From Spizellomyces punctatus DAOM BR117 (taxonomy: Eukaryota): a stretch of DNA of 64,000 nucleotides. The position numbers were made by a program, and so were the translations under genes. Under the pieces are notes generated by a model that had not been told where the DNA came from, made no database searches, and worked only from the letters and a program-made list of their open reading frames with translations. This document shows, one piece after another, positions 1-48,016 of this stretch (positions are counted from its first letter, which is position 1; every line of letters starts with the position of its first letter). Location of the stretch: the NCBI GenBank assembly GCA_000182565.2, contig KQ257457.1, one strand, 5' to 3'.

Positions 1-3000
1 ACTCGATAAACTTTTGTGCAGTCAATTCCGGACGGTTAATGTACCCCTTGGCAACTGAGGTCCGCCCACCCACAACTCCCCAATAGCACCCCGCGGCACG
101 ACATGCTCACCCGAAACAACCATCGCATCACACCCGTCAAACACTTTTCCAATACAACTTGGCCGATCCCCTCGCAAGACTTTATGAATACTACACCCAA
201 TCGTTGCTTCCGTCGGTCCATAAGCATTATAGAGCACTCCAACCCACTCATCAAGTACCCGTTGCGTTAATAGTTCTCCACCCGTGACAAGCACCTCTAC
301 ATCCGGTACATCCGCTCGTCGCACCAAGGCCGCAACAGTAGGTGTTAAATCCATATGCGTGACCCGTGCAGACCGGATCACCCCCGTCAAATCAGATAAT
401 AAAACGTCTTTAGAAGCCGAAACGAGCGTACAGCCCACACGCCATGCCAAAAACGTTTCGAAAACAGACACGTCAAACGTGTAGTTTGCGAATTGGAGGA
501 ATCGGGATGTGGAGGTGATTGGGATCGTTGATTCAAAAGCTTTGAGGGCTGCGTAGAGGTTTGCGTGGCTGATTTCAACACCTTTGGGTGTCCCCGTCGT
601 TCCCGATGTGTAAATAACATAGCAAGTATCTGTTGGATCCACCTCCTCTGTCTCAAACTCTCCATCTGCATCCCCTTCTGAATTCTCCACAATGATACAA
701 TCGATACCCGGCAATTCAAGTCCCCTTGACACAACCACCCTCTTTGCATCTACATCCCCCACCACAAACCTCTTTCGCTCCATTGGGGCCTCAGGGTCAA
801 TAGGAACATACCCCGCCCCACATTTAAGCACACCCAACAAGGCAACATACATCCACACACTCTTGACCACAATAATGGGAACAAGATCCCCATGACGGAC
901 TCCAGACGCTCGTAATCGCCTCGCAAACCGGTTAGCTTGCCCATTTAATTCGCTGTATGTCCACACCGTCGTTTTTTGCCCCGTCATAAATTCCAAAGCA
1001 GGATACGTGGGTCTCGTCCGTGCAAATCGTTCAACACCACTTGACATGCTCTCAAATCCCTTTATAGGCTTCCCATGCGTTTTGGAGAGGGTTTGGGGTG
1101 GCAGGGTCGGTAGGGATGTGCTTGGTGCCTCTGGACGGGTCAACATATCTGTTAGGATCACTTCATAGATGTGGAGGAGGAGATCAAGTTGTGGGAGGGC
1201 GAGACGGGTGGTTGTGGCATGGAGTCTCAAATGCGTTGATGTGGATTCGAGTTCAAGTGAGAGTGCATACTGTAGCAAAAAGTGGTGAGTATTTCCTTTG
1301 TTGTTCATCCCCCCCCAAAAAGACACACAATATACTTACATCCACATTGGCTTTCCCATCCACAACCCTCCAAATCCCATCCGAATTTTGAACCTCCTCT
1401 TTAGGCCTCACAACAAAAAGCGTCTCAAACAAACTCTTTCCAACCCATTTCTGAATATCACGTAGGGGTGTACACGCGTATGGCATCCCTTCTCGATGTT
1501 GGGCATCGAGTTCTTGGATGAGGGATAGGTTGGTTTTCGTGGGGGAGAGGGTTGTGCGGATCGGGAGGGTGTTGAAAGTCGGTCCGGGGATGGAGGTAAT
1601 GTTGGGGATGGGGAGAGTTCGACCTGATGTCAAGTGTCCAAACTATGTAGAAAAATCACAAGTCAAATAAATAAAATAAAAAACGACAGCATCGCCCAAC
1701 GAGAAACAAGAAAAGAACATACCACAATATCCTCTTCCCCACAATAAATCCCCAAAACTTTGGCCCAAACCGCCTGTCCAACCGCCAAAAGCGATACCCC
1801 CAACCCTTTAACACGACTCTCAACGACTTGACTCATAACTTCACAAACCCTAACAGAACCAATTCCTTCCACCCCACCCAAATCCGGAACCAACGTCGGA
1901 ACAACGCCTTTTAGTCTCTCCATCCAATACTTTTTGGCAGGAGCCTCGGGTCGAGATAGGATATACTCTACCACCCCGCGATAGGCCGGTCGGGTGGGTA
2001 CCAACCCCCCACGATAAACCCCTTCAACATCCCTTAAAATCATCTCAAAACTCCATCCATCATATAACGCATGATGCATGGATAAAACAAGGTACACATC
2101 TTCGCCAACATGTACCTCCCCAAACGCAATCGGCGGATCACCCAAACTCATTTCAACACCTTCCATAAAAGCCTCTATCCCCTCCTTTGAATCAACATGA
2201 ACAACCGACCACGGCATCCACACACTCGATCGAACAACCTGCGCCATACCCCACACACCATCAACAACTTGAAACGAAGACCGAAGGATATCCATACCCC
2301 GAATCACACCCTCCCAAGCCATTTTCAATCGTTCGACATTCGTACCGCTGTTCAATTGTAACACTGTATGCGTGATATACTGTCGCGGATCTTGATGCGT
2401 TTGGGCTAACATGCCTTCTTGGAGGGGTGTGCACGGGTAGGCTTGTAACTCATTGGAGGGTATATCCACCACGGAACTCACAGATTGAATCACACGGTGT
2501 TCAAAAGCCTGTAATTGAGTCCTAAAGTCACCTGAAATCGTATCCACCGGTTCTTCTTGGAGCATGGGAACCAACATCCCAATAGATGGATATCGCATCA
2601 ATTTGGACACAGGGACATTTATACCGCGAGTTTGTAAAGCGCTGCACATGCGAATGGCACTAATCGAATCCAATCCCAGTTGAGCAAGCGTCGTAGTCCG
2701 CGTGATAGAATCAGGGGGCACATTAGCAGTAGATGCAAGTACTTGTCGAATCGCCGTTTCCAAATCCGTCAAAGGTCGCATATCCGTTTGTTTTGGAACA
2801 ACGGAATGGATATCCAGGGCTTTATAAAGCGCTTCAAGAGCCTTTCGATCTGTTTTGCCTGTACTCGCCAAAGGCATTTTCCCAATCGAAAACACATGCC
2901 GTGGTCTCATGTACATTGGTAACGACTCAACAGCTTGATCCACCAAATGTTGCATCTCATCATCCAAAGGTTCTAATCCACTCGTACCTCCCACACAAAG

Positions 3001-6000
3001 AAACGAAACAACTTGGTCCCGCACTTGAGAAGGGTGTCGACAAACGAGGGTAGAAACATCCAAAACACCTCGAACACGTCCCAAACAAGAAGAAATCTCA
3101 CCCAATTCAATCCGTATACCGTTTAACTTGACTTGATCGTCTGCTCGGCCTAGGAACTCAATACTCCCATCCGCCAACATACGAACCACGTCCCCGGTTT
3201 TATAAGTCCGTCCATAATCATGTAACATGACGAATCGTTCGAAAGTCAACTCAGGTCGGTCTAGGTACCCCTTTCCAACCTGCGGTCCACCAATAACGAG
3301 TTCACCCACCCCACCCAACGGAAGGACTCGTCCATCCGCCCCAACCACAAACCCCGAGCACGTTTCCAAGACCCGTCCAATACACTCTGGCTTGGTCCGT
3401 TTATCAACACGCGTCATAACACACCCAATCGTCGCTTCAGTCGGTCCATACGCATTAACCAAAACCACATCCTCTCCACTCCACTCATCCACAACTCGCG
3501 CCGTCAAGGCCTCTCCACCCGTAACAAGTACCTCAATAGTAGGCACTCGATCCCTCCGTACCAAAGCCGCAACCGAAGGCGTCAAATCCACATGTGTGAT
3601 CTGCATACCCGTTAAAGCCCCCTCAAGATGCGCTAAAAGGACATCCTTGGGTGCAGAACAAACAGCAAACCCACACGAAAACGCAAAAAAAAGCTCAAAA
3701 ATACATACATCGAATGAACAGGTTGCGAATTGGAGGAAGCGGGAAGTAGGTTTCCATGGTATGCTTGTTGTAAACGCGTGTAGAGCGTTCACGGCATTGT
3801 CGTGGGTGATTTGAACGCCTTTGGGTTGGCCAGTTGTACCCGATGTATACAGCACGTATGCTACGTTTGTGTTTTTCACCGTGTTGGATCGTGTGTGTTC
3901 AGTCGAGGTGTCCCGTGCATGCTCTTTCAACGTATCGATAGAATCCAAGACAAGGGGCATCAACCCATTGAACGCATCCACATCCAAAGACCCCACCACA
4001 ACCACACCCCCACATTCACAGACCATAAACCGCTTCCGCTCAATAGGCAAATCTCGATCGACCATCACAAATGCTTTCCCGGCTTTCAGTACACCCAATA
4101 AAGCAATATACATCAGTACACCTTTTTCCAGACTGATGCCCACCACCTCTGCATCCGTTTTAGATGCCACCCACCCAGCCATCTGATTCGCCAGCCGATC
4201 GAGTTCCGCATAGGTATACACGACGGGTGCTGCCTCGACACGATCGTACCAATACAATGCTGGTGCGTCAGGTATCCTCTCCACATGCCCTTCAAACCTC
4301 GCATGCAAAACCGACGGCGCAATCTGTTTTGGAGGGTGGTTTGCTATAGAGAGGCGTTCGGGCGGTATGAGGAGATGTTTGGCGGGTGCATCCGGGGTGG
4401 TGATAATAGAGTGGATCACGTCGTCGAGTTGGGACAGAAACGTGTGTGCGTGTTGTGTGGATAGGGTGGACGTTTTGGATGCGAGGCGGAGGGTGAGGGA
4501 TGTCGATGTGGATTCGACTTCAATGGAAAGTGGGTACTGTCGATAATAAAAGTAAAAGAGTGAGCTTTCGTACACACAACAGAGTGCACACACAAAACAC
4601 ACATAAATAAATACTCACATCCACTTTGGCATCCCCCATAACCTCCTTCCAAACATCACCACCATGTTCCCGTCCTTTCATATAAACAAACAAGGTATCA
4701 AACAAACTCGTACTCTTGACCCATTTCTGGACTTGACGCAACCCAACCGTCTGATACGGCAACACGGCAGCATTTCCTTTTTGCAACCTGCTCAACGCAT
4801 CCGTATTCGATCCATCCAATCGAATCCGACAGGGAAGGGTATTAAACGTTGGTCCAAGAATGGATTCAACGTCCTGAATTGGAAGCGTACGTCCCGAGAT
4901 AACATGTCCGAAAACAATATCCGTTGTAGAGAGGTACGTCGACAAGAGTTTTGCATACGCGAGTTGGAATAGCGCTAATAGGGTCGTACCCGTCACTTTA
5001 CAAAACCCTTCCAGAGTCTCCATGGAATGACGGGACGTCTCTTGAATCATGTACTCGGTACCAACATCCCCATTCAAAAACCGTTGTCCACTCAAATCCG
5101 GAAACCGCGTTCCAGACCACCCTTCTAGTTCCCGTTCCCAAAACTTTTGGGCATCATCGGATGAGACGCCCAGTGCGTACTCTACACACTGCGAAAACGG
5201 GGGTCGAGATACTACCGTATCTGCTTTGTATGCTTTTTGAACGTCCTCGAACATCAAGTCCAAACTCCATCCATCGTACAGGGCATGATGTAATGACAGC
5301 ACACACTGAGACCCGAATGGCGACCCAACATACCGAACACGAATGGGAGGTGTCAAAAGACTCAACTCAAGTTGATCCTTGTAGGATCCAACCCGCTCAA
5401 GCACGTCGTCCCATGTTTGACACATATCGGTAGACCAAACCTCCCCAACATCCTTATAAACAACCTGCGCAAACCCATCCCGCACACCACAAAACCCTGT
5501 TCGGAGTACCTCGTTGGCACGACACACAGCCAACCACGCCGTTTCAAGTCGTTCCGGAACGACATCTTGTTCCAAGGGCAACACAAAATGATTCACATAT
5601 AACCCTGGTGTCGCGATACTAGCCGCGATCATACCCTCTTGCAACGGCGTACACGGATACACCCCAACCACCTCAACGTCTCCCACCTGCTCGACAATCT
5701 CTTGTCGATGCACGCGGTTGAATTCTGATATAGCCTGTTGACCCCGCACCAATGGATTCTGAACCTCTTTGTTCGTCCCCCGATTCCGATCCGCGAGGGC
5801 TGCCATACCAGCAACACTCGGTACTTGCAACATATCCGATACACTCAAATCAACACCATGAGATCGTAACCGAGATGAAACAAGAATGGCACTCAGTGAA
5901 TCCAGGCCGAGTTCAAAGAGGGTGGTGGAGTGAGTTATATCGTTTTCAGAGGTGTTGGATACGGTAGCGAGAACGGTTCGGAGGGTCGTTTCTGTACGTG

Positions 6001-9000
6001 TCCATTCTTTGCTTGTGATGCCATACCCGCTGTCGCTTCTTATCATACTCGGCGTAGCGGTTTCAAAAAGCTTGCCAAGTGCTTTTGTATCTGTTTTCCC
6101 GGTTGCACCCAGCGGAATGTGTGTGACAACAAGGATATGAGCAGGGACCATGTAAAGAGGGAGCACCCTTTTAACTCCCTCCAAAATCGTCGCAACAATC
6201 TCATCCCGTTTCTGTGACTTGGCTACGAGCATGTCCCCTTCACTCAGAGAAGCACACGCAACAAAGGATACAATCTGCTTCTTGGGTTGTTCAGGATGTT
6301 TCAATAAAAGCGTCACAACAGCTTTCACATCCGCACAACTGGATTTGACCACATGCGAAATCTCATCAACTTCGATTCGGATACCGTTTAATTTGACTTG
6401 TTGGTCTGCCCGACCTTGGAATTCGAGTGTCCCATCTGGCATCATACGGACAAGGTCACCCGTTTTGTATAGCCTGTGATTCTTCTTTGTGATCGGATCC
6501 GTCCATTCCACAAACTTTTGGTCAGTCAATTGAGGTTGATTGAGGTACCCCCGTGCAACCAGTGGGCCACCCACACACAATTCCCCAACACCGCCTTTCA
6601 ACACGGGCGACAACGGCCCACCAACGCCCATGACAAACGCGGAAACATTCCCAAAAGGCCGTCCAATGTTGGTAGTCTTGTCCGTCACCTTGACCCCCGC
6701 CAACATCGTACACCCAATCGTCGCCTCGGTAGGCCCATACGCATTAAAAATATTTTGATCCGGACCCCACTCGGCCAACACTTGCTGCGTCAGGGCTTCG
6801 CCGCCCGTCACAAGCACCTCAAGACTAGGCACATTGGAACGACGAACAAGCCCCGCGACACTCGGCGTCAAATCCGCATGCGAAACATTCAAGGACCGTA
6901 TGGCGAGTTCCAAATCCTTCAACAGCACGTCCTTCGGTGCACTGCACAGGCAAATCCCCACACTCCATGAAACAAGTGACTCGAAAATAGATACATCGAA
7001 CGCGCAGGATGCAAACTGGAGAAACCGTGACGTTGGCGTAAAGGGTATGATCTCCTTGAACGATGAAATACTCTGCACAACGTTACTGTGCTGGACCAAC
7101 ACACCTTTGGGCCTCCCTGTTGTTCCGGATGTATATAAAACATACGCTAAATGCCCAGCCGACAATCCATCAATAACCGGATTCCACCTCGGCTGAGCGT
7201 TGATTTGCGATTGAATGTATCGCACATCCAAAGGCATAACCTCCACATCCCCAAACTGTAAATCCACATATTGTCTCTCAACGCTCAAGACAAGCGTTGC
7301 GCGCGTATCCTTTATGACAAACCGTTTTCGTTCCGCCGGCGCGTCCGGATCCACAGGTACATACGCTGCTCCGGCTTTTGATACACCCATCATGGCTGCA
7401 TACATGAGTGGCGAGCGTGGTATGCAGACTGGGATCATGTCCTCGACACCTACGCCCCTCGTCCGCAGAAAATGCGCAATACGGTTCGCCTGGTGATTCA
7501 ACTCTTCGTAGCGCCATTGAAGTGTTTGACAATGAGTCTCGGTAATATCCATTGCGAATTCCAGTGCAAGATCCGTGGGCTTGTGTGCTGCGTGGTATTC
7601 TAGCCAGCTGTGCATGAACGTTATCTGGGAAGGGACATCATTGGCCTGTGCCAGTGGATTACAAATCGAAAGAAGATGCGATGGGTGGTTCGGTTCATTC
7701 ATATTCGAGTCCGGGTGCGTGATGGTATCTATGAGAGTCGACTCGAACTGCTCGGCCAGCAAGCCTGCTTGCTCTGCCGATACCATATCGCTTTTGCATG
7801 CGATTTCAATGGTGAGGGTTCCGTCCGACCTTGCTTGGAGTTCAACTGCAATGACAGACTGTAACAACAGGTTATGACATATGAATAATTCTTGCGAAAA
7901 ACGGGACACTTTTATACGCTACCTCAACCTCACCAACTCCTCGAACACTCCTCCACAACTCCTCACCAGCACCAACCTCAACCCGATCAAACACAAAAAG
8001 CGTATCAAACAAGGCGCGTCCATCGGTTACTCCAGCCCATTTTTGAATCTTTCTTAGAGGGGTGTGCTGGTATCGCAACAGATCCGTATACGCCTTTTGC
8101 ACCTGTTGGACAAGCGACCTGTATGTCACGGTTTCCTCCGAAAAGGTAATGCGACATGGAACAGTGTTGAGACACGGCCCAATGATATCGTTCCAGGATT
8201 GGGTTGCATCCGTTCGGCCAGAGAGAACAACTCCAAAAGCGGTGTCGGGCGTGCCTGTGTAAGTGGAGAGGAGCTTGGACCAGGTGGCCATCCCAAGGGC
8301 TTGGAGCGTCGTGTCCATCTCTGCAAGAAAAGGGCACAATCAAGTCAATCACCATTTTCAGAGCGGTTAACACCACATGACAAACAAACCTCGACATGCC
8401 CTCTCAACAACCTCCAAGCCAACTCCCACGTTCCTCACAATAACGGTACGTCCACCCTCCTTGACTCCACCTCGTCCAGAAACATCCGGGAAAGCAACAG
8501 GTTCAAATCCATCCAAAACCTCCTTCCACATCCTCTCAGCCCGCACGTCCTGGCCACTCTGTGCTAAAATCCGTTCAAGAGCCCATGAAAACGACGGCGG
8601 GTCTTTGATCGCGTCTCCATGATAGTGTGCGCGGACTTGATCGAGAATGAGACGGAGGGAACGTCCATCGTAGAGCGCGTGGTGGATGGAGAGGATCAAG
8701 TACGGGTTGGTTGGGCTGTTGTGGTAAGTGAGCGAGAGAGGCGGACGACCGGATAGGAGATTGGGAAACGGTGTTTGAAGCACATTGGTAATCGTCTCCT
8801 AATAGACGACAGATGGTCAGTTACACAACTCACATAATTCAGAATAAATCCATGGACTTACCTCAACATCCTCTCCACTCTCCTCATTCCTCCACACTAA
8901 CTGTCTCCTTTTCCAAACAACCTGGGCAAAAAGCCACTCAGCACCCTCTACATCTCCAACCGGGACAAATCCAGTCCTCAACACTTCATTCAGCTCCACA

Positions 9001-12000
9001 ACCTCCTCCCAAGCCCTTTGTAACCTCTTTGCATCGACATGCGAGGAAATCTCCCAAACATGATAATTCACGTACCCCCCACCTCGCAACGTTTGTCCCA
9101 ACATGCTTTCCTGCATGGGCGTGCAAGGTCGAATGGCCGCAATATCCTCCACCTTCCCTTCCAAAACTTCGGTGACGTACCCCCGAACAAGACGATCAAA
9201 CGCTTGGATCGTATCACGGATAACAGCCAACGCACGTTCATCTGATACATGCTCTTTCACTCCATCCTGGGCATCAAGTAGAGCAGCCATTCGATCAATC
9301 GTAGGGTTCTGCATGATGTCAATCATAGAAAGGTGAAGGTTGGATTGCTTGAATTTGGCCGAGAGCTGGATGGCGCTGATAGAATCCAAGCCCAGCTGGA
9401 AGATGGAGGTGGTGCGACCAATGTCCATCTCGGGGACGTGGGAGATTGATGAGATGTGCGATCGGATGACGAGTTCCATTGGACTCCAGGGTTCGGTGGT
9501 GGAAGCGTTCGCCGCTACTGCATCCTGTCTAGCAGACGAGGAAAAGACGCCCAAAAGCTCTGTATCCATTGTCTCATAGATGGCTTGAAGGGCCTTGCGA
9601 TCCACCTTGCCCGCCAATCCTCTTGGTAACTCTGTGAGCGGAACAACTGTGTTCGGTACCATGTAGTAGGGTAACGTCCGGCGACACTCTTCTACGGCTC
9701 TTTCAATGATATCTCGCACGGTCTCGTTTGGCGAGAGAACGCTACGGTCCTGGTGACCTCCCAAAGCCAAAAACGAAACCAATACATCCCTCCCACCTTC
9801 TCGCCGCCCAATAACCGTGACAGCGTCCCTGACCTCACCGCCACTACTCCGGACCAAAACAGCGTTAATTTCTCCCAACTCGATTCGAAGTCCATTCAAC
9901 TTGATTTGATCGTCTTTACGACCAAGATACTGTATCTCCCCCGAGGGGAGTATGCGCGCAACGTCACCCGTACGATACACTCGACCCATATTTGGGATAT
10001 CGCGGAACTTGGCGTCAGTCAAATCCGATCGGTTGAGGTACCCTCTCCCCACTTGGGGTCCTCCGATGCACAACTCCCCCACACATCCCAAAGGTAACAC
10101 CGTCATCTTCTCATCATTAAAATCAACCACCATGGCCGAACACGAGTTCAACGGTTCACCAATGCAACCTATGCGGGTCTCCTGCTCCACTCCACAATAT
10201 ACTACGCAAACATTGGTCGTCTCAGTGGGTCCGTATGCGTCAATCAGCGTCACCCCGTCGACACAAGCCCACTCATCATGGACCCGCCTTGTAAGCGCTT
10301 CACCCGTTTGGATCAATACCTTGACCGAAGGGACATGATCCCGCCGAATCAACCCAGCAGCCGTGGAAGTCAAATCCAAATGCGTAGGCACAAGTGTCCG
10401 AATCGTACTCTCCAAATCACCCAGCATGAGCATTTTGGAAGCCGAACAGAGCGTCATGCCACCCGCGAATGCATAAAAGATTTCAAACACTGAGACGTCA
10501 AACGTGTATGTCGCAAATTGCAGCATTCGAGACGTGGTTGGGTCAGTCGGTGGGTAGAGACGTTGAAGAGCCTCGAGATTACTCATCACATTGCCATGCT
10601 CAATCATGACACCTTTAGGTTGCCCGGTTGTACCGGATGTGTAGAGGACGTAAGCTAATGTTCCTGGGGTTAGCTTGATATCCGGGTTCCCTCTCCGATC
10701 CTTTAACTCGATTTCATCCAAACAAAGGACTTCGACCCCGCTGTCAACCATTAACGTCTTGAACGCGCCCACAGTAATCGCCACCTTTGCGCCCGCATCG
10801 CGCAGAATGAACTGTACACGTTCAGCTGGCGTGCCCGGCTCAATCGGGAGATAAGCGTACCCTGCCTTCAACACCGCGAGGATGGTAATATACATCAGGG
10901 GACTCTTGTCAAAGCAGATTGGAATAATAGATTCCAAAGGAAGGTTAAATGTCATTAGATGGTGCGCGATACGGTTGGCTTGCTCATTGAGGGATTTGTA
11001 GGTAATAGACTCGATCTTTGGCACAGCTTCTTCGTTTTCCCAGAGAAAGTCGAGTGCTGGACGATCAGGTGTCTCCTGTGCCCAGCGTTCAACGTACTGG
11101 TGCATCAGTGGAGCGGATCCTGGTATCGTGCATGGAGAGGCGTTGAGCAGTGATGCGCGATTGGAAACCGCCCGTTGAATGGGATAAGAGAAGAAACCAG
11201 CAGGAGCGGTCCTCTCAATAATGTCCAGTAAAATGTTTTCATATTGTTCCAATAGAATGTCGACGTGGGAGGGAGGAATTATGTCCGCTTTGCAACGAGC
11301 GCGGATAAGAAACTTGTCCCCATTCGGATCAATTTCAATCATGATTTTATCCTGTGTACAAAATGTTAATATGAAGCAATACTGTACAAAGCTTGAGAAC
11401 TTGACGAAAGACCCACCTCAAAGGCATCGTCCGTGTCAACAACCTCCAGCATCCGCTTATTCTCAGTCGCACCATAGTCGACCTTTTGGTAGACTACCCA
11501 AGTGTCAAACAAGCCATGACCACCCATCCCGCCCCGCCCAACGTTCTCAGCCAAAACTCGCAAATGCACTGCAGAATGCTCCAACATCTCGGCACCATCC
11601 TTTTGGATCGCTTGCAACATGCCAAGATCGTCATTGGACACAATGACTCGAACAGGTGCTAAATGGATACACGGTCCCATGACAGCTTCGATTCCATCAA
11701 CGGGTATATTCCGACCGGATAGCGTCGACCCGAAGATGACATCCTGTTGTCCAGTATAGAGCGCAAGAAGTTTGGCCCATGTCGCTTGGGCGAGCGTTTG
11801 GGGTGTTATACTCAGAGCGCGACAATATTCTTCAATGATAGAAGTCGTCAGAGCAGCCACGCGCGAAGATATGTGTATGTCTTTTACTGGAGGTGTCGTC
11901 TTGGACGTGAGAGTCGGAAAAGATTCAAGGGATGGAAGATCTGCCAGGTACGTCTTCCAGTAATTGACTGAGGATGCAGCCTCCGCTGCTGGCGTTGAGA

Positions 12001-15000
12001 AATGGTGCTCAACAATGTTCCGGAATGCCGGGCGAGGTAATGACGACTGGGAAGAAAGGTAGGCCTCCACATCTCGTAACATTAGAGGTACGCACCAACC
12101 ATCATAAACAGCATGGTGGACCATGATGGCCAGGTAGCTACTACCGCCAGACCTGACAGTCACAAACATCGCAGTTACAGGCGGGACATGCAAAGACTCA
12201 AACTGTAAAGCGTTTCTCTTTTGAAAGTCTTCCATGACACCTGCCACTTTAGCCTCATCCTCAACCTCTGCGATAGAAAACGAATTCTCCCCCTGCCGTG
12301 GACAAGATCCGGGTTCCCAAACAACCTGAAGGAATGTCCAAGGTGCATCCTTATTGAGAACACCGTCCGCACTTGCGAATCCAGTCCTCAGGATGGGGTT
12401 TGTTGTCGTTAAATGCTCCCACGCTCGACGAAGTGAGTCCGCTGTGACATTTTTTGCCACCCGTATCAGTATTCGATCGTAGTACCGCTTACCCTTGGGG
12501 TCTTTCAACGTCTCAGCAAGTAGACCCTCTTGTAGAGGTGTACAGGGATAGCAGTCTTCGATGCTACTAGTTGGAACCTTCAGCAAGTGGGACAGACTTG
12601 CAGAGAGTCCGCTAATGTTGGAAAGAAAATCTTCCCTCAGAGCAAGGCGTTGTTGCTTCAGTTTGGTCAAACTCTCACGAGCTTTATCGTTAGGACTGTC
12701 GAGAATCCTGCCAATCTCCTCCATTGTTGGACTCTGGAGCAGTTGCGTGACAGAGATATGCATATTCCGTTCCCGAAGTTTGGAACACAAAATGATAGCG
12801 CCCAAAGAGTCAATCCCCAAAGAGAAAATGGACGTTTTGAGCGTGACTCCGGTAAGCGGAGTCTTGCTCATCTTACAGACTACCTCGCGAAGGGTGGATA
12901 GTGTAGCGTTCTTCTCCCACACTTGCTCGTCTTCAGCGCTTTGCAGAGTAGAAAGCGGTGTGTCCCTAATTGCGTCCAAGTCTAGTTCTGAAAAGAGTTT
13001 AGCGAGGCGCTTTCGGTCCGTTTTTCCTGACAGATTTCTTGGCACGCTGTCAATGAATACGAATGCATTTGGAATCATGTATGGAGGAAGATGGGAAGCA
13101 GATGAAGACTTGCAAGCATCTTCAACCTCTCTTGGTCGCAGAACGCGGATGAGCTCGTACTCGCCCACGACTGGGCAATCCAGATTACCAACAGCTACAA
13201 AAGAAACCAGCATCTTGCCTCCAGCTCCTCGCTCGTCATTTATCACAGCTGTCACCACGTCGACTACTGCTGAATGCGCGCCTGCAACGACATGGCTGAT
13301 TTCTCCCAATTCGATCCGTTGACCTCGGAGCTTGACTTGCTGATCGTCTGCAACACGCCCAATAAACTCAAGCGTGTTGTTGGGGAGGAGGCGAACCAAG
13401 TCTCCTGTTTTGTAGATCCGGGTTGCAGGGTTTCGTGGGTCAATGAAGTAAGCCCCTGCATTGGCTTCCGGCCGGTTGAGATATCCCCTCGCGACCTGTT
13501 TACCACCAACATAGAGCTCTCCAACATGTCCTATAGGTACCACGGACAAGGAAGGTGCGTTCGGTTCTTCTTGACCCATGACGTAGAGCGTACATGTGTC
13601 AAGCGCGATTCCAATATTACTTGGTTTCGTCGTCGGATCAAAGTCAGCTGCCATGGTGCAATGGATGGCACATTCCGTAGGTCCATAGGCATTGTGCAAA
13701 CTTCCATCCCCAGCCCACTCGTCTACCACCTTTTGCGTCAACATCTCACCAATGGTCAACAATGCCTTGACACCTGGCACATTCGATCTCGTAACCAACC
13801 CAGCAACAGTGGGAGTGAGTTCCATGTGGGTGACATGGAGAGCATTGATGGTATCTTCCAGTCGAGCTAGAAGCAGCTCCTTACTAGCTGAGCAAAGACA
13901 CATACCCAGGGAGAAGGGGAAGAATATCTCAAATACAGAAACATCAAATGTCGGAGATGCAAATTGAAGAAACTTTTCGCCAGCGTCGAGGGCTGGTGAT
14001 GCGTGCGGTATGATGGCATGATGCGAGAGGATACTTTCGATTCCGTTTCCATGTTGAAGCTGGACACCTTTGGGCTTTCCTGTCGACCCAGACGTGTACA
14101 TCACGTAGGCTAAATGCTCTTGTTGAATCCGTGAACAGTCCGTGTTGCTCTTGTCCTGGCCATCCATATCCAACTGAACTGCCTCCGAGTCCAAATTGAC
14201 GAGGATCAAATCTCTCAAAGTGTTGTGCTCCAAACAAAGAGTTACGTTCTTTGCATCCGTGATCATAATGTTTGCGGCGACGTCCCCCGCTACAAAAGCA
14301 ATTCGCTCCACGGGTGCATCGCTTGCGAGAGGAACATATGCCGCCCCGGCCTTGAGGACCGCAAGGAAGGCAATGTACATATTCGGTGAGCGATCTACGT
14401 ATATTGGAATCATATCATCTGGCTGGACGCCGTGGCTCAAGAGAACCCGAGCGAGCTGATTGGCTTTTTCGTTGACCTCTTGATAGGTGTACCGTGTCGA
14501 CGCGCCGGTTTCAATAGAATGAAGAAACTCGATAGCTAGCCGATGAGGGTAGAGGATACATGTTTGCTCAAAAAGGTGGTGTAATAGAGTGGCACCTGGT
14601 ATTGTGGCATTCGTTCGCTCGATCGGGTTCGGGTTTTGAATGGAAAGTTGTGATTCCGGCAGGGCGGAAAAGTCGAGAGCCAATGGATGTGCGATAGGAT
14701 TGGCGAGCGTCCATTGCAGAATATAATCGAATTGCGACAATAGCTGAAGGCCCTGATTAATGGGAAAGAGGTTTGAGTTCCAGGTGAGTTGGAAGGTCAG
14801 TTGGGTACGGGTAACGTTAACGAGGAACAAGAGCTTGACCTAGATAAAGTATGGCCTTAGTGAAATCAGGTCACGAAAAGATAAACATTCGTGGCTAACG
14901 TACGGGGACATTGACTTGAACAGCGCTGCAAAAGTCTTCCCATTCGCCCTCATTCATATTATCTAGGGACACTGCCAATACCGTATCTGCTGAGACTCTG

Positions 15001-15386
15001 GTATCCGCTTCTTCCTGCTCTAAAACGGACCGCGCTCGATTAACAAGATCTAGATTGTTGAGCGCTGAGTGTAGCTCCACCCGAGTAGGTATGGTTACTG
15101 GTCCCTTTTCAAGATCGGCTAGTTGAAATCCAACAGCTTGCTCGCCAACGTAACCTTTCAAGATTTGAGCCCAAGCGACAAGTATGACAGCATGCATCGA
15201 GTTGGGACCATAGGTTTTGGCACACGATTGTGCGAAATGCGATACATCGATCGACGAATGGAATGTTTCAGTAAGATGAGATGCTGTAGATGCAGAGGAA
15301 GGCAGCAGCTTCCCGCTCAAGTTTGGAAAGGCCGTGATTAGCTGGTCAGCAGCAACTGGCGAAGGTGTTGGGTGTCCGAGCATCAT
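1..15386 (-). CDS. sidC: Ferrichrome-type siderophore nonribosomal peptide synthetase (SidC/NPS2/Sib1 family); partial-C-(A-T-C)x4-A5..., 3' end runs off the window
   Basis: Inferred exons: 15386-14904, 14839-11417, 11351-8862, 8798-8390, 8320-7923, 7858-4619, 4536-1723, 1642-1340 and 1269-<1, all joined in frame by GT-AG introns of 63-82 nt. Five A domains carry YTSG(S/T)TGxPKG and YGPTE; A1-A4 also show (K/R)TGD. Four T domains (LG(I/L)DS) and four C domains (HHA(V/L)YDG) are present. A1 has LLTIGEML and GPTECAIHCT, and A2 has GPTETTNVC, as I recall for ferrichrome synthetases. The gene is divergent from a sidA gene. Apparent frameshift at 54/55. Confidence 0.93.
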
Positions 15387-16838
15387 GAAAATAGGTCACA
15401 CTTGAGGAGTCGTATATAGCCGATGCGAGGGAAATTGATGAATAAAATGCGAGCTAATGTCCTGAGAGATCAATTAAAGATAATGGTATAAGGCTCTGAA
15501 AGATGCGCCGTAATCAAAGAGGTAATGGGTAGCTCGATAGAATATAGATGATGCCCGATTGCACAAATGCTGCTGATCAAGAAACACAGAGCCAGAGGAA
15601 TGAGACGTAAGCCATCGCTTTACAGCAGCAAACAACGACAAAAAAAATAAGAATCGCAATTGCATGCAACTCTGGAGATGACCGACAAGTGATCGGCTGC
15701 AATGGCCTGTTACGATCCTTCCGGCTTGGAAGGAGGCATTTCCCACATTCACAATTTTTTCAAACGTTTTTTTTTTTCTTTGTGAATTCTATTTTGTCTG
15801 AAAACAAAAAACTATAAAATAATCGGATACCATGTCCATACGATGGTGCATTTTTGGTCCCTTGGCAAGTCGTCGTCGGACCCTTGGAGAACAGGAAGAT
15901 GCTGCCAATCAGCGTGCGTTGTCGTCGGGCCCTCCAAAGGCTCAAAAAATACTCTTCCTGGTTGTTGTACCAATATCGTCACCACCTCCAAAAGACTAGA
16001 GCACACCCGGCACCCTCACACAGAACCCTCGGTTGAGGGAGACCCGATTGGAAGACAAACAAGGTTTCTTTTTCTCTTCCTGCAATCAATTCATTTGCTA
16101 CAGGATTCCTGCCCGAGAGCAACCAACGACCGACAACCGACGGACTGGGATGTTAAAGTGCGCAGATATCAAGCTTACAAGGAAATGACGGAATAAGTGT
16201 GCTAAAAAGGTGTTCCAAAAAAACTTTAAATTTCAACGACCGCGTGGCTTCAACTAGTCGTGATTGGCTGACATTGTCCGATCGTAGCTGGATCGATCCA
16301 ATTGTAAACAAATGCGTTTATGCGCGCCCTTCCAATGCTGCTTTTTGCGTTGATGTTGGATTTTGCTTGCTTTCACTTTTGCATCGCCGCATCGGTCGTC
16401 GTCCGCCAATCGGATAGAGTTTTCCTTTTCATGGCACTTACCATGTCCATTGTTTACACACTTTCGGGATGGTCCTTCGGCCCCCCCTCTCCACACAGGT
16501 AACTCACCAAAAATGAAAAAAAATTGCGTCGGCGAAGGGCCATGACTCCTCGTGCGTAATGGATTCTGAACTTGTCGCTTTTTTGTGCCGACGACGGGAT
16601 ATTGCCCTGGCATGTCCCTAGAGTTTTTTTTTGTTCTTAAATACATCCACCCTCTCGCGTACCCCACCAAAAACAGCACCTCTGTTTGGTATGTGGAAAG
16701 CTTTGTACTTGATCCTCACCCATAACACGCCGCAATACCCACTAGAATAGACATTTTCCATTCCTTATCCCTTGGCTCCCATCATTATCGATTTCTTACA
16801 TCTTTTAACTCCTTCACACACGAGACACCAAGAGCAAA
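15387..16838. promoter_or_regulatory. Bidirectional promoter between the NRPS and the sidA-acyltransferase fusion
   Basis: Head-to-head ATGs at 15386 (-) and 16839 (+). Contains AATCGGATA twice (15821, 16408), a 12-bp direct repeat TACCATGTCCAT (15828, 16439), CCAAT at 16406 and AGATAA at 15478. Confidence 0.6.
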
Positions 16839-18938
16839 ATGCCTGCCACGCAATCACAGCCAGAACAATTTGATGTTCTCTGCGTCGGGTTTGGACCAGC
16901 AGGACTGGCCATTGCGGCTGCTATGGCAGACGAAAAAGTCATATCTCTCGACACGACAACAGCGGATGAGAGCCTACGTGTTCGTTTCATTGAAAAGCAG
17001 CCTTCCTTCCTCTGGCACGGTGGTATGCTTCTTGATGGTACAAAGATGCAAATCTCCTTTCTCAAGGACTTAGCTACCCTGCGCGACCCCACGAGTAACT
17101 TCACCTTCCTCAAATACCTGCACGAGAACGATCGTCTCGTTCCATTCGTGAATCTGGGTACCTGGAACCCATACCGGGTCGAATTCAACGATTATCTGTC
17201 ATGGGCGGCAAAAAAGTTTGAGAAATTCTGCGATTACGGTGAACAAGTCATGTCTGTGGACCCATTGATTCATCCCCAAGACGGGACCGTCAGTCAGCTA
17301 CGGGTTACTTCAAGAACCTCAGATGGAGCCCGCATAGTAAGAGACACCAAGAATATCATTGTGGCCATCGGTGGCCAGCCACGGTACCCAGATTTTGTTC
17401 ACCGGTCTATCGGTTCCCAAGTAGACCAGACAACTACTCCCCACCTTGCACATACCTCTCAATACACCTACCGTGTCCAACAAATGCTTCCAGATGCTGA
17501 GGCATCATACCGTCTCGCGGTGATCGGATCGGGACAGAGTGCGGCCGAAGTATTCATGGACTTGGGACGAAGGTATCCCAACGCTGAAGTCAACCTCATC
17601 TTCCGCGATTCGGCTCTCCGCCCGTCGGATGACTCTCCCTTTGTCAACGAGGTGTTTGACCCTGACCGTCGCGATGCCTTTTATGCGCAAACATCCGAAC
17701 AACGGAAAAGTTCTCTTATCCGGGATAAAGCAACCAACTACTCTGTTGTCAACGAAAATCTCATTAATGAGATCTACGGCATGATGTACATGCAACGGTT
17801 ACCTGGAAGCGAAACCCGACCTAAGCATGCACTGATGCCAAATCATTCCATACTGGACATGCACAAGTCGAGTGGCGGCATCACTCTAACGCTAAGGGAC
17901 TCTCGCAGCGATAATACGACTGGATATGAACGGACTTTTGATGCCGTGTTTCTCGGCACGGGATACGAGCGATTCGCCCACTTGGATGTGCTACAGCCCG
18001 TGCTGCCGTACCTGAACAAGGATCAGGACAACAAGATTGTTGTCGGTCGTGACTACAGAGTGTCAACAACCAATGCCTGTCGCGCTGGCATCTACGTACA
18101 AGGTTGTTGTGAAGATACCCACGGACTAAGTGATACACTCCTTTCAGTTCTGGGTGTTCGAGGTGGCGAGGTGCTTCAGTCCATTCAAGCACGCATGAAC
18201 AAGGTGCAGATTCTCGGTCAGAAGCAGAGCGGCAACATGGTGGATGTTAAGCAAACCGCTACTCCACCAGCATCACCGGTACCTTCTCCTACCACCTGTC
18301 AACGCATCAACGTAGACAGGATAGATAGTGGGATCAACGTGACGGGAACCAAGAAAGAGTCGGGCCTTGCACCATGTCCACCCAAACCCTTACCTGGCAC
18401 TATCCTCTTCTCCAAATATATACCTCACCTGAATGAAACATTCTCCCTTCGTGTCGCCAACCTCCAGACCGACATCCCCCTTCTGACAAAATGGCACAAC
18501 AATCCTCGAGTCAGTAAATTTTGGAATGAAGTAGGAGATGAGTCTCATCATACCAAATACCTCTCGACACTTCTCGCCGATCCCCACTCTATTCCTTGCA
18601 TTGGCATGTTCAACGACGTCCCTTTCGCCTACTTTGAGATTTACTGGGCGGCACACGATCGACTCGCAGGATATTATGATGCTGGTACGCATGACCGTGG
18701 GTTCCATCTTTTGGTAGGAGAAGAAGCATACAGGGGCTCCCACCGTGTGGAGGGATGGTTGCCCGCAGTCGTGGAGTTTATGTTTGGAGATTGCTCGGGC
18801 ACAAAGAGGGTTGTTTTGGAACCTAGAGCGGACAATGGGAAGCTGATAGGATACTTGTGCAATTTTGGATTCCAGTTCAAAGGAGAAATCAAGCTGCCGC
18901 ATAAGACGGCAGCGTTAATGGTTATGGAGACGGAATAG
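16839..18938 (+). CDS. sidA: L-ornithine N5-monooxygenase fused to a C-terminal N5-hydroxyornithine acyltransferase (GNAT, AlcB/IucB/SidL/SidF type)
   Basis: Single 699-aa ORF. The N-terminal part has GFGPAGL (FAD), WHGGML..MQISFLKDL, IGSGQSAAE (NADPH), RPSDDSPFVNE, ATNYSVV, FLGTGY and HGLSDTLLS. After a Pro/Ser linker come PPKPLPG..FSKYIPHL, WHNNPRV..FW, PFAYFEIYWAAHD, DRGFHLLVGE, VVLEPRADN and LPHKTAALM. Confidence 0.93.
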   Translation: MPATQSQPEQFDVLCVGFGPAGLAIAAAMADEKVISLDTTTADESLRVRFIEKQPSFLWHGGMLLDGTKMQISFLKDLATLRDPTSNFTFLKYLHENDRLVPFVNLGTWNPYRVEFNDYLSWAAKKFEKFCDYGEQVMSVDPLIHPQDGTVSQLRVTSRTSDGARIVRDTKNIIVAIGGQPRYPDFVHRSIGSQVDQTTTPHLAHTSQYTYRVQQMLPDAEASYRLAVIGSGQSAAEVFMDLGRRYPNAEVNLIFRDSALRPSDDSPFVNEVFDPDRRDAFYAQTSEQRKSSLIRDKATNYSVVNENLINEIYGMMYMQRLPGSETRPKHALMPNHSILDMHKSSGGITLTLRDSRSDNTTGYERTFDAVFLGTGYERFAHLDVLQPVLPYLNKDQDNKIVVGRDYRVSTTNACRAGIYVQGCCEDTHGLSDTLLSVLGVRGGEVLQSIQARMNKVQILGQKQSGNMVDVKQTATPPASPVPSPTTCQRINVDRIDSGINVTGTKKESGLAPCPPKPLPGTILFSKYIPHLNETFSLRVANLQTDIPLLTKWHNNPRVSKFWNEVGDESHHTKYLSTLLADPHSIPCIGMFNDVPFAYFEIYWAAHDRLAGYYDAGTHDRGFHLLVGEEAYRGSHRVEGWLPAVVEFMFGDCSGTKRVVLEPRADNGKLIGYLCNFGFQFKGEIKLPHKTAALMVMETE

Positions 18939-19102
18939 ATCAGAGAAGATGGACTGTAAGCACACTATTGTAAAATAACTGTTCAAAAAGTGGAGATCGC
19001 TTACGATACATTGGAACCACATTGTAATAAATCCATAAAGAGATAAATGACACTTTAGTTCCTGGGAAGCTCTTGCTTTGCTGTCTTTTCGTCCTTGACA
19101 CC

Positions 19103-21682
19103 ATGGATAGTGACCAGGAGGATTCTGACTTTCCGGAGGCGGATGTCGCATTGTAACTATGTTCTCGTTGGAGGGAGCTTTGTAAACTGATAATAATAAC
19201 ACGTTGTTTTTTCTTGGCTTTTAGGGAAAGAGTCTTTAGCCAAAGGACACTTGGGAGACTATCCCAGGCACCCGCATCACAACCAATATCTTCACCGTCC
19301 AACTCCCAGCCATTAACACAGAAATCTTCCCAGTCCACAATATCGCCAAACAAAGCAGCAAGATCGCCAGACCCCCACACGTCGGGAGACCTCAATTGGC
19401 AATTCACCTCATCCGCGTCCCCCACGGCGGCCTCTGGGCGAACCAGAGTTGCGCGCACACCCTCTACATCACCCGAGCCACAAATTCCTATCTTCAAGGT
19501 TCCCTTCCTTCCTGGCACTGTTGCTGAGGTGGAACAAGTCTATAGTCAGCTGACGATGACGCCCAACATTAGCCTTTCACCGAGCCATTCTGTCCCTGCA
19601 ACCGTTACGCATAGCGCCAGCAACAGTGTCAGTGAAAGAGATCAGCACGCCCCACCTTCGATACCGGCCAGTTCTTCGGTCGATAACGAGACCGCAGCGC
19701 CTCCACAAAAGGCTAAGCCGCGTCAACGACGGAAGACCGTAGAAACGCTCGCCGTAGATTTGGCAGGTGACATCGAAATGGTACCAATTGGAGAGGATGA
19801 TGAGGATTGGAGACCTAAAAAGAAGGCTTCATCATCAAAACGGAGGCGAATCCCGACCCGGCGCAATACTACTGGTAGGAATCGCGCGGATGCACGATCG
19901 GGCGATACGATGTCAATCAAAAGAGAAACGCACTGTGAACAGTTTGAGACGTTGGTGAGGGAAGCAGAGCGTGATCATGTATCTGGAGACCTGGTACTGG
20001 GAGGCCGGCTTGGCGGCAGCGGGCTGGGGGGACTGGAAGGGCTGAGAAAGAGAAAGAATCAGAAATTATCCTTGGAAGCAGAAGATGAGCTGGACGAACG
20101 GAGAGAAGGAACAGAGTCGCCACCTGTGCGAGTCTATACTGAAGAACAGCATGAAGGCCGGATGGGACCGCAGCGCCAGAGGAGGAGAGCGCAAAAGCAG
20201 GCGGCTCTGGAAGCAGAAGCCGAGCTGGAAGAAGAGAGAGAACAGCTGGGACACGTTCAAGAAGATCTTGACGAACAGGTTACCGCCGGAGAATCTATTC
20301 CTATGGCTGTCCGTAAAGGGACAGCGCAACGGCCATCTTCGCAGAGCTCACTCCGAAAGACACCCGTTCTGGACGTGAAAGGGAAAGGTCCAGCCGAAAG
20401 AGCGCCAGCAAAAGATGTACATGGAATCAACAGGGCACAGAGTCGAGGTGGGGCCTCTAAAAATCATCAGGAAGAGTCTATAGACGATCGGATGACGGAG
20501 ATGGATCCGCACCGCCTTGACAAAGGACAGGTGGAAAATAGTCCCACGACAGAGTCACAGAAAGTACGACAGGGTAACACCAGTACAGCAAAGCCGGTTA
20601 CTACAATAAGAGCTGGTAGCTCAGTACCTGGGTCCGAGGTACAATCGCCTGCGAGTCCCTCTCTCAGCAACAATGGGCAAACGTCGAGTTATGCCCCTAA
20701 TTCACAGCAGAATCTTGTACAAGCCACCAATAGCTCCATAACTCAATCAACTGAGAGCATGTCGAGCCTCGAATCCGCATCCAATACGATATTGCCCACG
20801 GCATCCGTCCTCTATCAGAATATCCAAGTCCTTCAACTTCAACTGGCAACACAAGCCCAACAGCTCGGGAACCTCCAAGCCCAATACAATGCACTTCAAA
20901 CCCAATTCAACGCAATGCAAAACCAATATTTCAACGACAAGACACATGTCCATAAACAATTGGACGGCACTGTGGATCGGATTGAAAATTTGGAGCAGTT
21001 TGCGGATAATCAGTACAAAGATAACGATTCCATCAAGGAGGATTTGAACCAGATGAAAGAATGGGGGCTTCACCAGATAAATGAACGGGCTGAAAAAATT
21101 GAGGAGCAGGTTGAGCATTTGGGTTGGAGGATTGATTCCATTGAGTGGGAGGAAGATGGAGAGGATCCGCCGAATGGGCAAAATAGGGATGATGACTGGC
21201 GAACGCTGGGACCAGACGATGCAAATCCAAGTTCATCGTCCGTCGCTGACATTGAAGAAGAAGGAGAAGAGGCAGCAGAGCAAGTCCAAGCTAGCAACAG
21301 TCAACATAAAAGTCCAAAAGCTCGATCCCATTTAGATCCCACAGTTCCTGCCATACAAATTGGACCAAACCGCGAATTTGAACGAAATATCAAAGACAGT
21401 AGCGAACTCCCAATGACATCCCCTCCAAGCTCACCGCCACGTACTCCCGTACCGCATTCACCTCCATCTGCTCAATCTCCTAGAAAACGTAAACCCAGTT
21501 TCATGTCACCCACAATCCCCCAAGAGTCTAACGACCCAGAGCTCGAGAAACAAGAGCACGAGGGTCGACCGGCGAAACGTCAGAGGTTGCCGACATCCAC
21601 AAGGCTTTGGACGGCGGGATTGATTAGTCTTGGAATATGGGCTGGGCAAGAGTGGTTGTGGGGTGGTGGGGCCGGGTTTTAA
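19103..21682 (+). CDS. Hypothetical disordered and coiled-coil protein with a C-terminal hydrophobic tail
   Basis: ATG at 19103; an intron at 19153-19224 joins in frame to the 822-aa ORF. Ser/Pro-rich and acidic/basic tracts, a Gln-rich heptad stretch (IQVLQLQLATQAQQLGNLQAQYNALQ), basic clusters and a terminal LWTAGLISLGIWAGQEWLW. Confidence 0.7.
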
Positions 21683-28211: not shown

Positions 28212-29313
28212 GGTTGTTTTCTTTTTTTCTAAGTGGCTATCTAGCTTCTTTCAGTTTTTTGACAAGTGCGTGTGTGTGTGTGTACAAGTGCAATGGTAGG
28301 TGAAATATAAGGTCGTTCAGCAGTGCGCGCCAATAGCTGCTTCACCACAGTCTGCAGGTATTGGCGTGTTGTGTGGTGGGGGAAAAAAGATACCCGTTGG
28401 CGGGCGGTGCTCGGTCGTGCGCTTGCTGTTCACACCCACGTCATGGTTAACAATAAACCATGCAGGGATCCCTGAACTCGTCGCTCGCAATCCGCTGGTC
28501 GTTATTCTTTGTATCCTCGCCGTACAAGGCGAAAAAAGAGGTCCGAAAAGAACTCGTCCTCTCCAGCTCTGCAGGTTAAAAAATCGACGCGAAAACGGGG
28601 GGGTGTGCGCACAACGGCTTCTCGTTCAAAAAGTAAGCAAAAACGGGACTCGCCTCGTGTGTGCTGCAAAAAACTCGAAGTGTTCAGTTTAGTCAGAAGT
28701 GTTCCAAAAAACGCGACTTGCAAAATTGACTCTCGTGATTATCACATGATAGAATGTTTACGTCAGCGGATGATCGGACTATGGGGATGGAACACTTGTA
28801 CATGGCGCCATCGTCTGAACCGTTAATCACACTAGATCTCACCAATTTGCCATTCACATTATAGAATGGGAGAGGCAAAACAAATATCTACATTGACGGT
28901 TAGTTAACGTTTAACGGCTGCCGTTGTATCTTTCCGCACCCCATTCACCCAGAGTACGATCCATAGTAGAGTTCAATTGCACATGTCTCATCATGTATAG
29001 TATACGAGGGATAATTGAACTGCATATGATTAGAATGATAAAGGGAAATATATCTTGTAACAATACGCAAGAAGCAAAACCTCTTGGCATGTCCGAACGA
29101 ATGATGATTCACTTCTGGGTCACGTGGACACTGAGTCAGCAAAGCGATATTCAATTCTCCACCGGAAGGCGCCCTTCACACAACAAAGCAAATTGTAAGA
29201 TCGTATCGGAATCCACGTTTGGATTGAAGAGCAAGGCTGGCGCACGTTGCATATAGTGCATATTGCGACAAATTCTGGTCAATTTGTTAACTTGTTTGAT
29301 CCTGAATCCCACC

Positions 29314-47327: not shown

Positions 47328-48016
47328 TCCAGCTTTTGGTACCTGGACTAAATCATCGAGAAGGTCTTCTCGCCTGGTCCTTAAAATAAACGCCCTATAA
47401 ACAAAGCAAGGCCTCCGCCTCATTTGTCCGACAGATCGGTCAGCGAAGGCTTAGTAACGCGTTTACACAGCCTGCCAACAACATCCACGGAGACAAACTG
47501 AAAACATATCACAAAATCGACACAATTCAGATATGGAACTGCAGAGGCACGGTACATGTCACATCGTAGCAACGTTAAGATATATACAAGGCATTCAGTT
47601 ATTGAGTAAGCCGGATTTGGAGGGTTGTGTAAATCTTAAGCTGGGGTACGATATCATGGTGTATTGGGCTGAAGACAAGTACCAAATCCCCAATGATTCG
47701 GGTGATAAAAGTTGTTGTTGTGTTGAGGTCATTTGTTGAGGAATGGTTGCTTGCAAGCAAATGATCCACAGAAAGAAGGCTCGTCCTACTGCTTTGTGCC
47801 GTCGTGGAAGTGTTCAAAAATCGGATGCTAAAAAATGGCAAATTCAACGAGCCGCCAAACTGTGCCACGCGTAAAGGCACAGTTGTGTTCGGGCAATCCT
47901 TCGGCTGTCGAATTTCGCTTCGTCGTCGCTATTTTTTTAGAGGGCCTCATCGCCGTCGTTTTTCCTTTCCAACAAGTTCATTTCACATAGAAAATATCAT
48001 TATAGACTTGTCATGA

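Follow-up and report, generated by a model that had tools for sequence, protein, structure and literature searches.

The accessible passages of PMC2644324 propose that fungal ferrichrome synthetases descend from a hexamodular, colinear ancestor with three hydroxamate adenylation (A) domains. Aspergillus nidulans SidC builds a hexapeptide on five carriers, its A2 domain catalysing the addition of glycine, as described in parts of PMC10192304. Siderophore-clade A domains are reported from Basidiobolus and Conidiobolus, with their module layout undescribed in the accessible passages of PMC7466969. According to the accessible parts of PMC2644324, PMC3709128 and bioRxiv 10.1101/2024.08.20.608788, the chytrids examined there lacked a ferrichrome synthetase and homologues of SidA and SidF/SidL. 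Our literature search, which covered few subscription journals, returned no description of a five-module layout or of a chytrid ferrichrome synthetase; the supplementary trees of PMC7466969 and PMC4133162 may touch on this novelty. Here we analysed 64,000 nucleotides of Spizellomyces punctatus DAOM BR117 (contig KQ257457.1, GCA_000182565.2; G000:C8:60622-124621, G000 being the genome assembly), hereafter the window, which carries a gene for a nonribosomal peptide synthetase (NRPS) with five A domains. An original prediction, made from the sequence alone, had proposed that A3, A4 and A5 serve the three hydroxamate residues as dedicated modules instead of one iterative domain. Comparative evidence supports this as the best explanation of the sequence.

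Architecture of the Spizellomyces synthetase gene

The NRPS gene lies on the minus strand and is split by introns. Stop-to-stop frames together with Pfam placed all five A domains inside it, the first four each being followed by a thiolation (T) and a condensation (C) domain. With its start codon at 15386, the gene has eight GT-AG introns inside the window. Past the left window edge, the assembly holds 1,829 nt of N, after which come the latter half of a terminal C domain (CT) and a stop codon. The exon found past these N (in L004) shares 84% identity with the CT domain of the orthologue P0273, a complete protein of 5,707 aa that ends A5-T5-CT and is 86% identical to the Spizellomyces protein across the C3 region. 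By our own count ~420 residues of P0273 span the undetermined stretch, which 1,829 nt fits with one or two introns, so that no room is left for a further module. A six-module reading of the gene was rejected on these grounds, and the Spizellomyces gene has five complete A-T-C modules. The database protein model of the same gene, P0002, is identical to our query.

Neither a thioesterase nor an epimerase was found by Pfam or in P0273, the A-T-C modules ending in the terminal condensation domain. The top annotated homologues in a search with the C3 region were NPS2/SidC/Sib1-type proteins. The gene is best explained as an NPS2-type ferrichrome-family siderophore synthetase of ~5,700 residues with the layout C'-(A-T-C)4-A-T-CT. 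The half condensation-like domain encoded by the first exon (14904..15386) had no Pfam match on its own.

Five of the introns (14840-14903, 11352-11416, 7859-7922, 4537-4618 and 1270-1339) lie close to domain ends, one for each C or C-like domain. Judged by eye, four of these five seemingly share one codon position.

Three A domains share one specificity pocket

Pocket codes were read by eye from alignments, with the register fixed in three ways. Alignment of A5 to GrsA (1AMU) and SidN-A3 (3ITE) with phmmer gave D235, V236, F239, D278, V299, G301, A322 and I330, with G331 as the residue after I330, paired with the SidN glycine, and A2 aligned to GrsA in the same register. The five window domains aligned with each other without gaps at the pocket columns. 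As a control, Alternaria NPS2 (P0017), read likewise, reproduced three ChNPS2 rows of Table 2 in PMC2644324. The resulting codes were DVFELIAIHK (A1), DVFDITANVK (A2), DVFDVGAIGK (A3 and A4) and DVFDVGAIG (A5). Alignment to GrsA and SidN-A3 therefore confirmed the codes of A1 and A2 in the original prediction, and also its central claim that A3, A4 and A5 have the same pocket residues, unlike A1 and A2. The A5 lysine, correctly anticipated to lie off-window, is unreadable in the assembly (N run) and present in P0273; A4 has its own A10 lysine, as has P0273 A5. A DLTPS motif ascribed to all three domains stands for A3 and A4, A5 reading DLTPT.

This identity is found in domains whose cores are only 58, 54 and 57% identical in pairwise protein comparisons, with 89/194 core columns (46%) identical in all three; A5 and A4 share 68% identity in DNA. 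The chance of all eight variable pocket positions being identical is ~0.002, and it is ~0.02 when only the five positions at which A1–A5 are not all alike are counted, both figures being rough as pocket positions sit inside conserved motifs. An AlphaFold model of A1, built from a five-row alignment, had a mean pLDDT of 49 and was uninformative.

Predicted substrate of A3, A4 and A5

Table 2 of PMC2644324 lists FgNPS2 A3 (DVLDIGAIGK) and Ustilago Sid2 A3 (DVIDMGAIGK) as predicted hydroxyornithine domains. The A3–A5 code agrees with each of them at 8/10 positions, which supports the suggested resemblance of A3–A5 to the acyl-hydroxyornithine domain of NPS2-type enzymes. The pair Gly301+Gly331 occurs in 7/8 hydroxyornithine rows of that table versus 0/14 other rows. 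Judged by sequence, A3–A5 have the same deep, glycine-lined acidic pocket of the hydroxyornithine type (D278, G301, I330, G331).

Of the other proteins listed from early-diverging fungi, 14 in number, we surveyed 13 (all but P0275), reading the codes by eye. Among 38 rear domains, 37 were readable, and Gly301+Gly331 was present in 35 of these versus 2/22 front domains; the exact A3–A5 code occurred in 18 rear domains and in no front domain. In Powellomyces P0003 and in a paralogue from S. punctatus itself (P0276) all three rear domains have the exact code, and the front pockets vary freely. There were ~100 matches in Dikarya, and the three complete ones checked (Ascobolus, Neolecta, Xylona) had four A domains with one such pocket each. 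Saitoella P0005 has two such pockets, the last with the exact chytrid code, and the A3, A4 and A5 cores each scored best against its last-module A domain. P0005 is an ascomycete NPS2 model, truncated at both ends, whose last module retains an A domain. Because Gly301+Gly331 marks rear as opposed to front domains in this way, our best reading is that A3, A4 and A5 are three dedicated acyl-hydroxyornithine modules.

A small acyl group such as acetyl is favoured, since F239, D278 and V299 replace glycines of SidN-A3. Alternatively, A3–A5 might take another monomer, with a longer or different acyl group, or might differ from one another through residues outside the ten-residue code. Positions 243 (V/F/L) and 320 (F/V/Y) do differ among the three, and acyltransferases of the PF13523 family transfer various groups: parts of bioRxiv 10.1101/2024.08.20.608788 describe SidF as taking acetyl and anhydromevalonyl, and the discussion of PMC10192304 mentions the hexanoyl of coprinoferrin. 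However, the three residues in place of the SidN-A3 glycines argue for a small acyl and the genome has a single acyltransferase of this family, and we consider a different monomer improbable.

Module history and relatives

Module kinship was assessed from pairwise best-match bit scores. Basidiobolus meristosporus P0274, an uncharacterised protein of 6,834 aa, has six A-T-C modules. The three front pockets belong to the types of NPS2 A1, A2 and A3, and the last three have Gly301+Gly331 and differ among themselves. Of the proteins surveyed, none comes closer to the proposed hexamodular ancestor. Window A1 matched P0274 A1 (262 vs 205 bits), A2 matched module 2 (458 vs 419 bits) and A3 matched A4 (565 vs 449 bits); window C2 scored higher on P0274 C2 than on C3. 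In Powellomyces P0003, A4 and A5 each matched their positional partner (441 vs 395 and 337 bits; 321 vs 275 and 269 bits, respectively). The rear triple would thus be older than the Spizellomyces/Powellomyces split. A4 and A5 are only 49–53% identical to their Powellomyces counterparts and keep the same pocket and core motifs. Loss of module 3 is well supported by these comparisons, and the gene looks like modules 1, 2, 4, 5 and 6 of a six-module ancestor; that its last two modules each trace back to a single counterpart in a Basidiobolus-type ancestor is putative.

Several observations weigh against dedicated loading or this history. A4 preferred P0274 module 5 only marginally (407 vs 401 bits), the partial A5 preferred module 4 (285 vs 268 bits), leaving its positional partner ambiguous, and C-domain best matches against Saitoella P0005 did not settle the module order. 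Gly301 and Gly331 are likewise found together in the second module of P0276 and of Nowakowskiella P0285. The pocket of the middle rear domain has drifted in P0004, P0007, P0283, P0288, P0006, P0286 and P0274, several chytrids among them, and in P0006 and P0286 Gly331 is absent. At position 239 the Spizellomyces domains have F and the NPS2 domains L. Pocket codes are called poor predictors of fungal substrates in the accessible text of both PMC2644324 and PMC10192304, and the Table 2 assignments in PMC2644324 are themselves predictions. Finally, A5 carries a one-base frame shift near window position 55 (minus strand), where P0002 stops.

The weak placement of A5 in P0274 would also suit the view that the identical pockets are a functionally uninformative by-product of recent duplication or gene conversion. 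The divergence of the A3–A5 cores in protein, that of A5 from A4 in DNA and the separate positional partners of A4 and A5 in another genus all contradict this, and we give it very little credence.

The paralogue P0276 (G000 C10 ~374000-393000; L003, L006) has six modules, with front pockets DVFDFIAIS, DVYELGAIG and DVSDIGAIN and DVFDVGAIG in the rear three. An open acidic pocket in its module 2, shared with P0285, may take a large or basic residue.

Integrity of A4 and A5

An in-frame 63-nt stretch of A4 (3646-3708, minus strand) has GT-AG splice-like ends and includes pocket positions 236 and 239; both database models, P0002 and P0273, remove it as an intron. We read it as probably coding, because its frame is open and the encoded helix is conserved, also in Powellomyces A4. 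Splicing of this stretch would cripple A4.

A splice-like stretch in A4 is what might be expected if A3 loaded all hydroxamates in trans, as SidC A3 does, with A4 and A5 as redundant leftovers heading for loss. The drift of the middle rear pocket in the seven proteins named above points the same way, as do P0285, with two rear A domains only, and Saitoella, without a fifth A domain. Yet A4 and A5 keep motifs and pocket in both Spizellomyces and Powellomyces despite their low identity, and the A10 lysine is present in A4 and in P0273 A5. We therefore regard loading in trans by A3 as unlikely.

The frame shift in A5, together with the stop of P0002 at that point and RNA depth at background over the NRPS, might indicate that the gene is broken in this genome and that P0276 makes the sole siderophore. 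Undetermined sequence begins ~55 nt from the shift, however, and errors are frequent in such places; the orthologue P0273 lacks the shift. No other stop or shift occurs in ~15 kb, and the RNA reads pile at 3' ends, that of the NRPS being off-window. Loss of the gene is thus very improbable. Two low-depth contigs, X2 and X3, showed no differences from the window where they covered it (23/30 and 20/30 bins), coverage that did not reach the first 639 bases.

Proposed mechanism and product

The A1 pocket agrees with that of Sib1 A1 at 9/10 positions (Table 2 of PMC2644324), and because Sib1 makes the tri-glycine ferrichrome, A1 would load glycine. As a near copy of the Sib1 A1 pocket, A1 bears out the earlier suggestion that it resembles the small-residue domain of NPS2 enzymes. 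A2 had been described as atypical, perhaps loading an unusual residue, which was not borne out and to which nothing in the comparison points. Besides its match in Basidiobolus, A2 matched module 2 of Saitoella P0005 best (192 vs 162 bits) and shares N330 with the NPS2 A2 predicted, in the accessible source, to load serine. The LTST and IQxGE motifs of A2 are found again in the second modules of Powellomyces, Thoreauomyces, Gaertneriomyces and the ascomycete Neolecta. A2 is an ordinary domain of the NPS2 module-2 type, predicted to take a small residue (Ser, Ala or Gly).

Substrates and product are predicted here from architecture, pocket residues, motifs, neighbourhood and homology. A fusion enzyme encoded beside the NRPS (described below) would hydroxylate ornithine at N5 and then acylate it, most likely with acetyl. 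A1 would load glycine and A2 a small residue, A3, A4 and A5 would each load one N5-acyl-N5-hydroxyornithine onto their own carrier, and the terminal C domain would release and cyclise the chain. The sixth ring residue would most likely come from iterative glycine addition by a front A domain, as in SidC, and the product would be a ferricrocin- or ferrichrome-like hexapeptide. Taken as a whole, from the supply of N5-acetyl-N5-hydroxyornithine and small residues on A1 and A2 to dedicated loading by A3–A5 and cyclisation by CT, we consider this mechanism probable.

Its telling consequence is that five carriers stand against a ring of normally six residues, so that the product may have five or six. 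A hexapeptide is the default expectation because SidC has the same carrier count and adds an extra glycine through A2. A strictly colinear enzyme would instead make a contracted ferrichrome of five residues with its five modules, Gly-X-(acyl-hydroxyornithine)3 in cyclic or linear form. Each carrier has its own intact A domain, which makes iteration unnecessary. In the accessible literature, poly-glycine formation within a module is known only for SidC A2, whose pocket differs, A1 and A2 here being of NPS2 type; linear tri-hydroxamates also exist, so iron can be bound without a full ring (PMC10192304, in part). Known four- and five-carrier synthetases still yield a hexapeptide, however (passages of PMC10192304 and PMC2644324), and relatives that have lost A2 (P0006, P0007, P0286, P0288) keep its carrier, implying cross-module loading in the family. 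Strict colinearity is a possibility that we regard as rather unlikely, and the cyclic pentapeptide cyclo-Gly-X-(acetyl-hydroxyornithine)3 is a similarly doubtful product. The likelihoods attached to the alternatives partly overlap with that of the proposed mechanism and do not sum to one.

Neighbouring precursor gene, expression and other features

The features of the locus are collected in Table 1.

Table 1. Coordinates of synthetase domains and of the neighbouring precursor gene, in window positions.
Feature	Position	Strand	Basis
First exon, with the start codon and a half condensation-like domain at the N terminus	14904..15386	-	Aligns with Basidiobolus P0274 N-terminus via orthologue P0273
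A1, pocket DVFELIAIHK, predicted Gly (Sib1/NPS2 module-1 type)	12953..14569	-	Pfam; alignment; 9/10 to Sib1 A1
T1 and most of C1, HHxxxDG intact	11417..12895	-	Pfam PP-binding, Condensation; sequence
A2, pocket DVFDITANVK, NPS2 module-2 type, predicted Ser/Ala/Gly	9543..11093	-	Alignment; module-2 best matches
T2 and C2; introns 8799-8861, 8321-8389, 7859-7922	7700..9467	-	Pfam; sequence
A3, pocket DVFDVGAIGK, predicted acyl-hydroxyornithine (ancestral module 4)	6044..7606	-	Alignment; best match P0274 A4
T3 and C3; intron 4537-4618	4400..5986	-	Pfam
A4, pocket DVFDVGAIGK, predicted acyl-hydroxyornithine	2803..4305	-	Alignment; position-matched in Powellomyces P0003
T4 and C4; introns 1643-1722, 1270-1339	1130..2754	-	Pfam
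A5 core, pocket DVFDVGAIG; runs off-window into T5 and terminal C domain	1..1044	-	Alignment; P0003, P0273
L-ornithine N5-monooxygenase fused to IucB/SidL-type acyltransferase	16839..18938	+	PF13434 E 8e-101; PF13523 E 4e-51

The gene for the monooxygenase–acyltransferase fusion is the divergently transcribed neighbour of the NRPS. In the genome assembly PF13523 matched nothing else, and PF13434 gave no second match of nearly full length. A representative protein search found the same fusion in five other chytrid proteins and in Basidiobolus and Conidiobolus. In fission yeast, separate ornithine monooxygenase and acyltransferase enzymes form a complex, according to the accessible part of PMC11424930. 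A second kind of fusion, of an ornithine/lysine monooxygenase with a putative FMN-binding domain (PF04299), was seen in P0193, P0200, P0226, P0234 and P0248.

RNA run X8 reached 229-fold depth in the bin 18532-19150, with poly(A) loose ends at 19050, just past the stop of the fusion gene. Over the NRPS body depth was 0-0.6x, i.e. background, with no splice joints. One strand of the region 15337-16614, between the two genes, had a depth of 2-6x, above that of the gene bodies. The SreA-type motif ATCWGATAA had 27 matches versus 28 expected, none of them between the two genes.

Two ferritin matches with identical scores lie elsewhere in the genome (G000 C3 1216393-1216855 and 1253905-1254367). 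The accessible passages of PMC4133162 tie the rise of sidA to ferritin loss, and the coexistence of ferritin and ornithine monooxygenase in S. punctatus speaks against this replacement idea.

Directly downstream of the NRPS is an alpha/beta hydrolase gene (L004 2839-4749, minus strand), for which a role as siderophore esterase is a guess. Long frames without a Pfam match are found at 48476-53509 (+, 1,677 aa), 45957-47450 (-, 497 aa) and 26445-28250 (-, 601 aa).

Implications

New here is the five-module gene with its pocket series. S. punctatus has a synthetase, a fused precursor enzyme and ferritin matches. The gene and its relatives would be family members that keep three hydroxamate domains, making it testable how one domain came to serve three carriers. 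The many paired domains should allow the hydroxyornithine pocket to be defined, and a two-gene pathway is easy to express in yeast. Were the strictly colinear enzyme with its cyclic pentapeptide to prove true, the product would be a new ferrichrome scaffold and the first hydroxamate siderophore from a zoosporic fungus, and the enzymes of chytrids and Basidiobolus would represent surviving intermediates between a colinear ancestor with six modules and the iterative synthetases found in higher fungi.

Comparison with known systems

The published enzymes are compared here as described in the accessible parts of PMC2644324 and PMC10192304. A likeness to the NPS2 lineage (S. pombe Sib1, C. heterostrophus NPS2 and F. 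graminearum NPS2; Types III–V of PMC2644324) is seen in A1, in the module-2 type of A2, in the agreement of A3–A5 with FgNPS2 A3 and in the terminal condensation domain. In that lineage a single hydroxamate A domain precedes T-C-T-C and there are six carriers, whereas the Spizellomyces enzyme has three predicted hydroxamate A domains, five carriers and no T-C unit lacking an A domain.

SidC (Type II) is alike in having five carriers, two front A domains, three rear hydroxyornithine carriers and a CT domain (PMC10192304). Unlike the dedicated A3–A5 proposed here, SidC A3 loads all three rear carriers, and the A1 and A2 pockets of SidC (DPMMWMAINK, DVQHTIT VVK type) are unlike those of the Spizellomyces enzyme. 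Ustilago maydis Sid2 (Type I), read in PMC2644324 as an intermediate from the ancestor, shares the presence of more than one predicted hydroxyornithine A domain, in addition to its A3 code. It differs in having two such domains rather than three, in belonging to the NPS1/SidC lineage and in its four C domains.

Epichloe SidN-A3 shares D235, V236, G301, I330 and G331 with A5. For its large anhydromevalonyl monomer it has G239, G278 and G299, where A3–A5 have F, D and V, so the glycines of a SidN/epichloenin-type pocket are absent from all three. SidN-A3 as best PDB match was considered as a diagnostic feature and rejected, as A2 also matches it first; A1 does not.

Three dedicated hydroxyornithine A domains are also described for Acremonium Sid1, the AS2488059/ASP2397 synthetase, which we compared through its description in PMC10192304. 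It has six modules and a backbone of Asn, Val and Phe. This only six-A candidate discussed in print is said there to be of other evolutionary origin. Against the hexamodular ancestor of PMC2644324, or P0274, A1, A2 and A3 of the window gene match modules 1, 2 and 4; module 3 is absent, and there are five complete A-T-C modules in place of six. Types I–VI of PMC2644324 have one to four A domains and at least one T-C unit without an A domain; the Spizellomyces gene has five A domains and no such unit. Overall, the enzyme has the sequence features of the ferrichrome family and would resemble SidC and Sib1 in its working, with a layout that falls outside all six Types.

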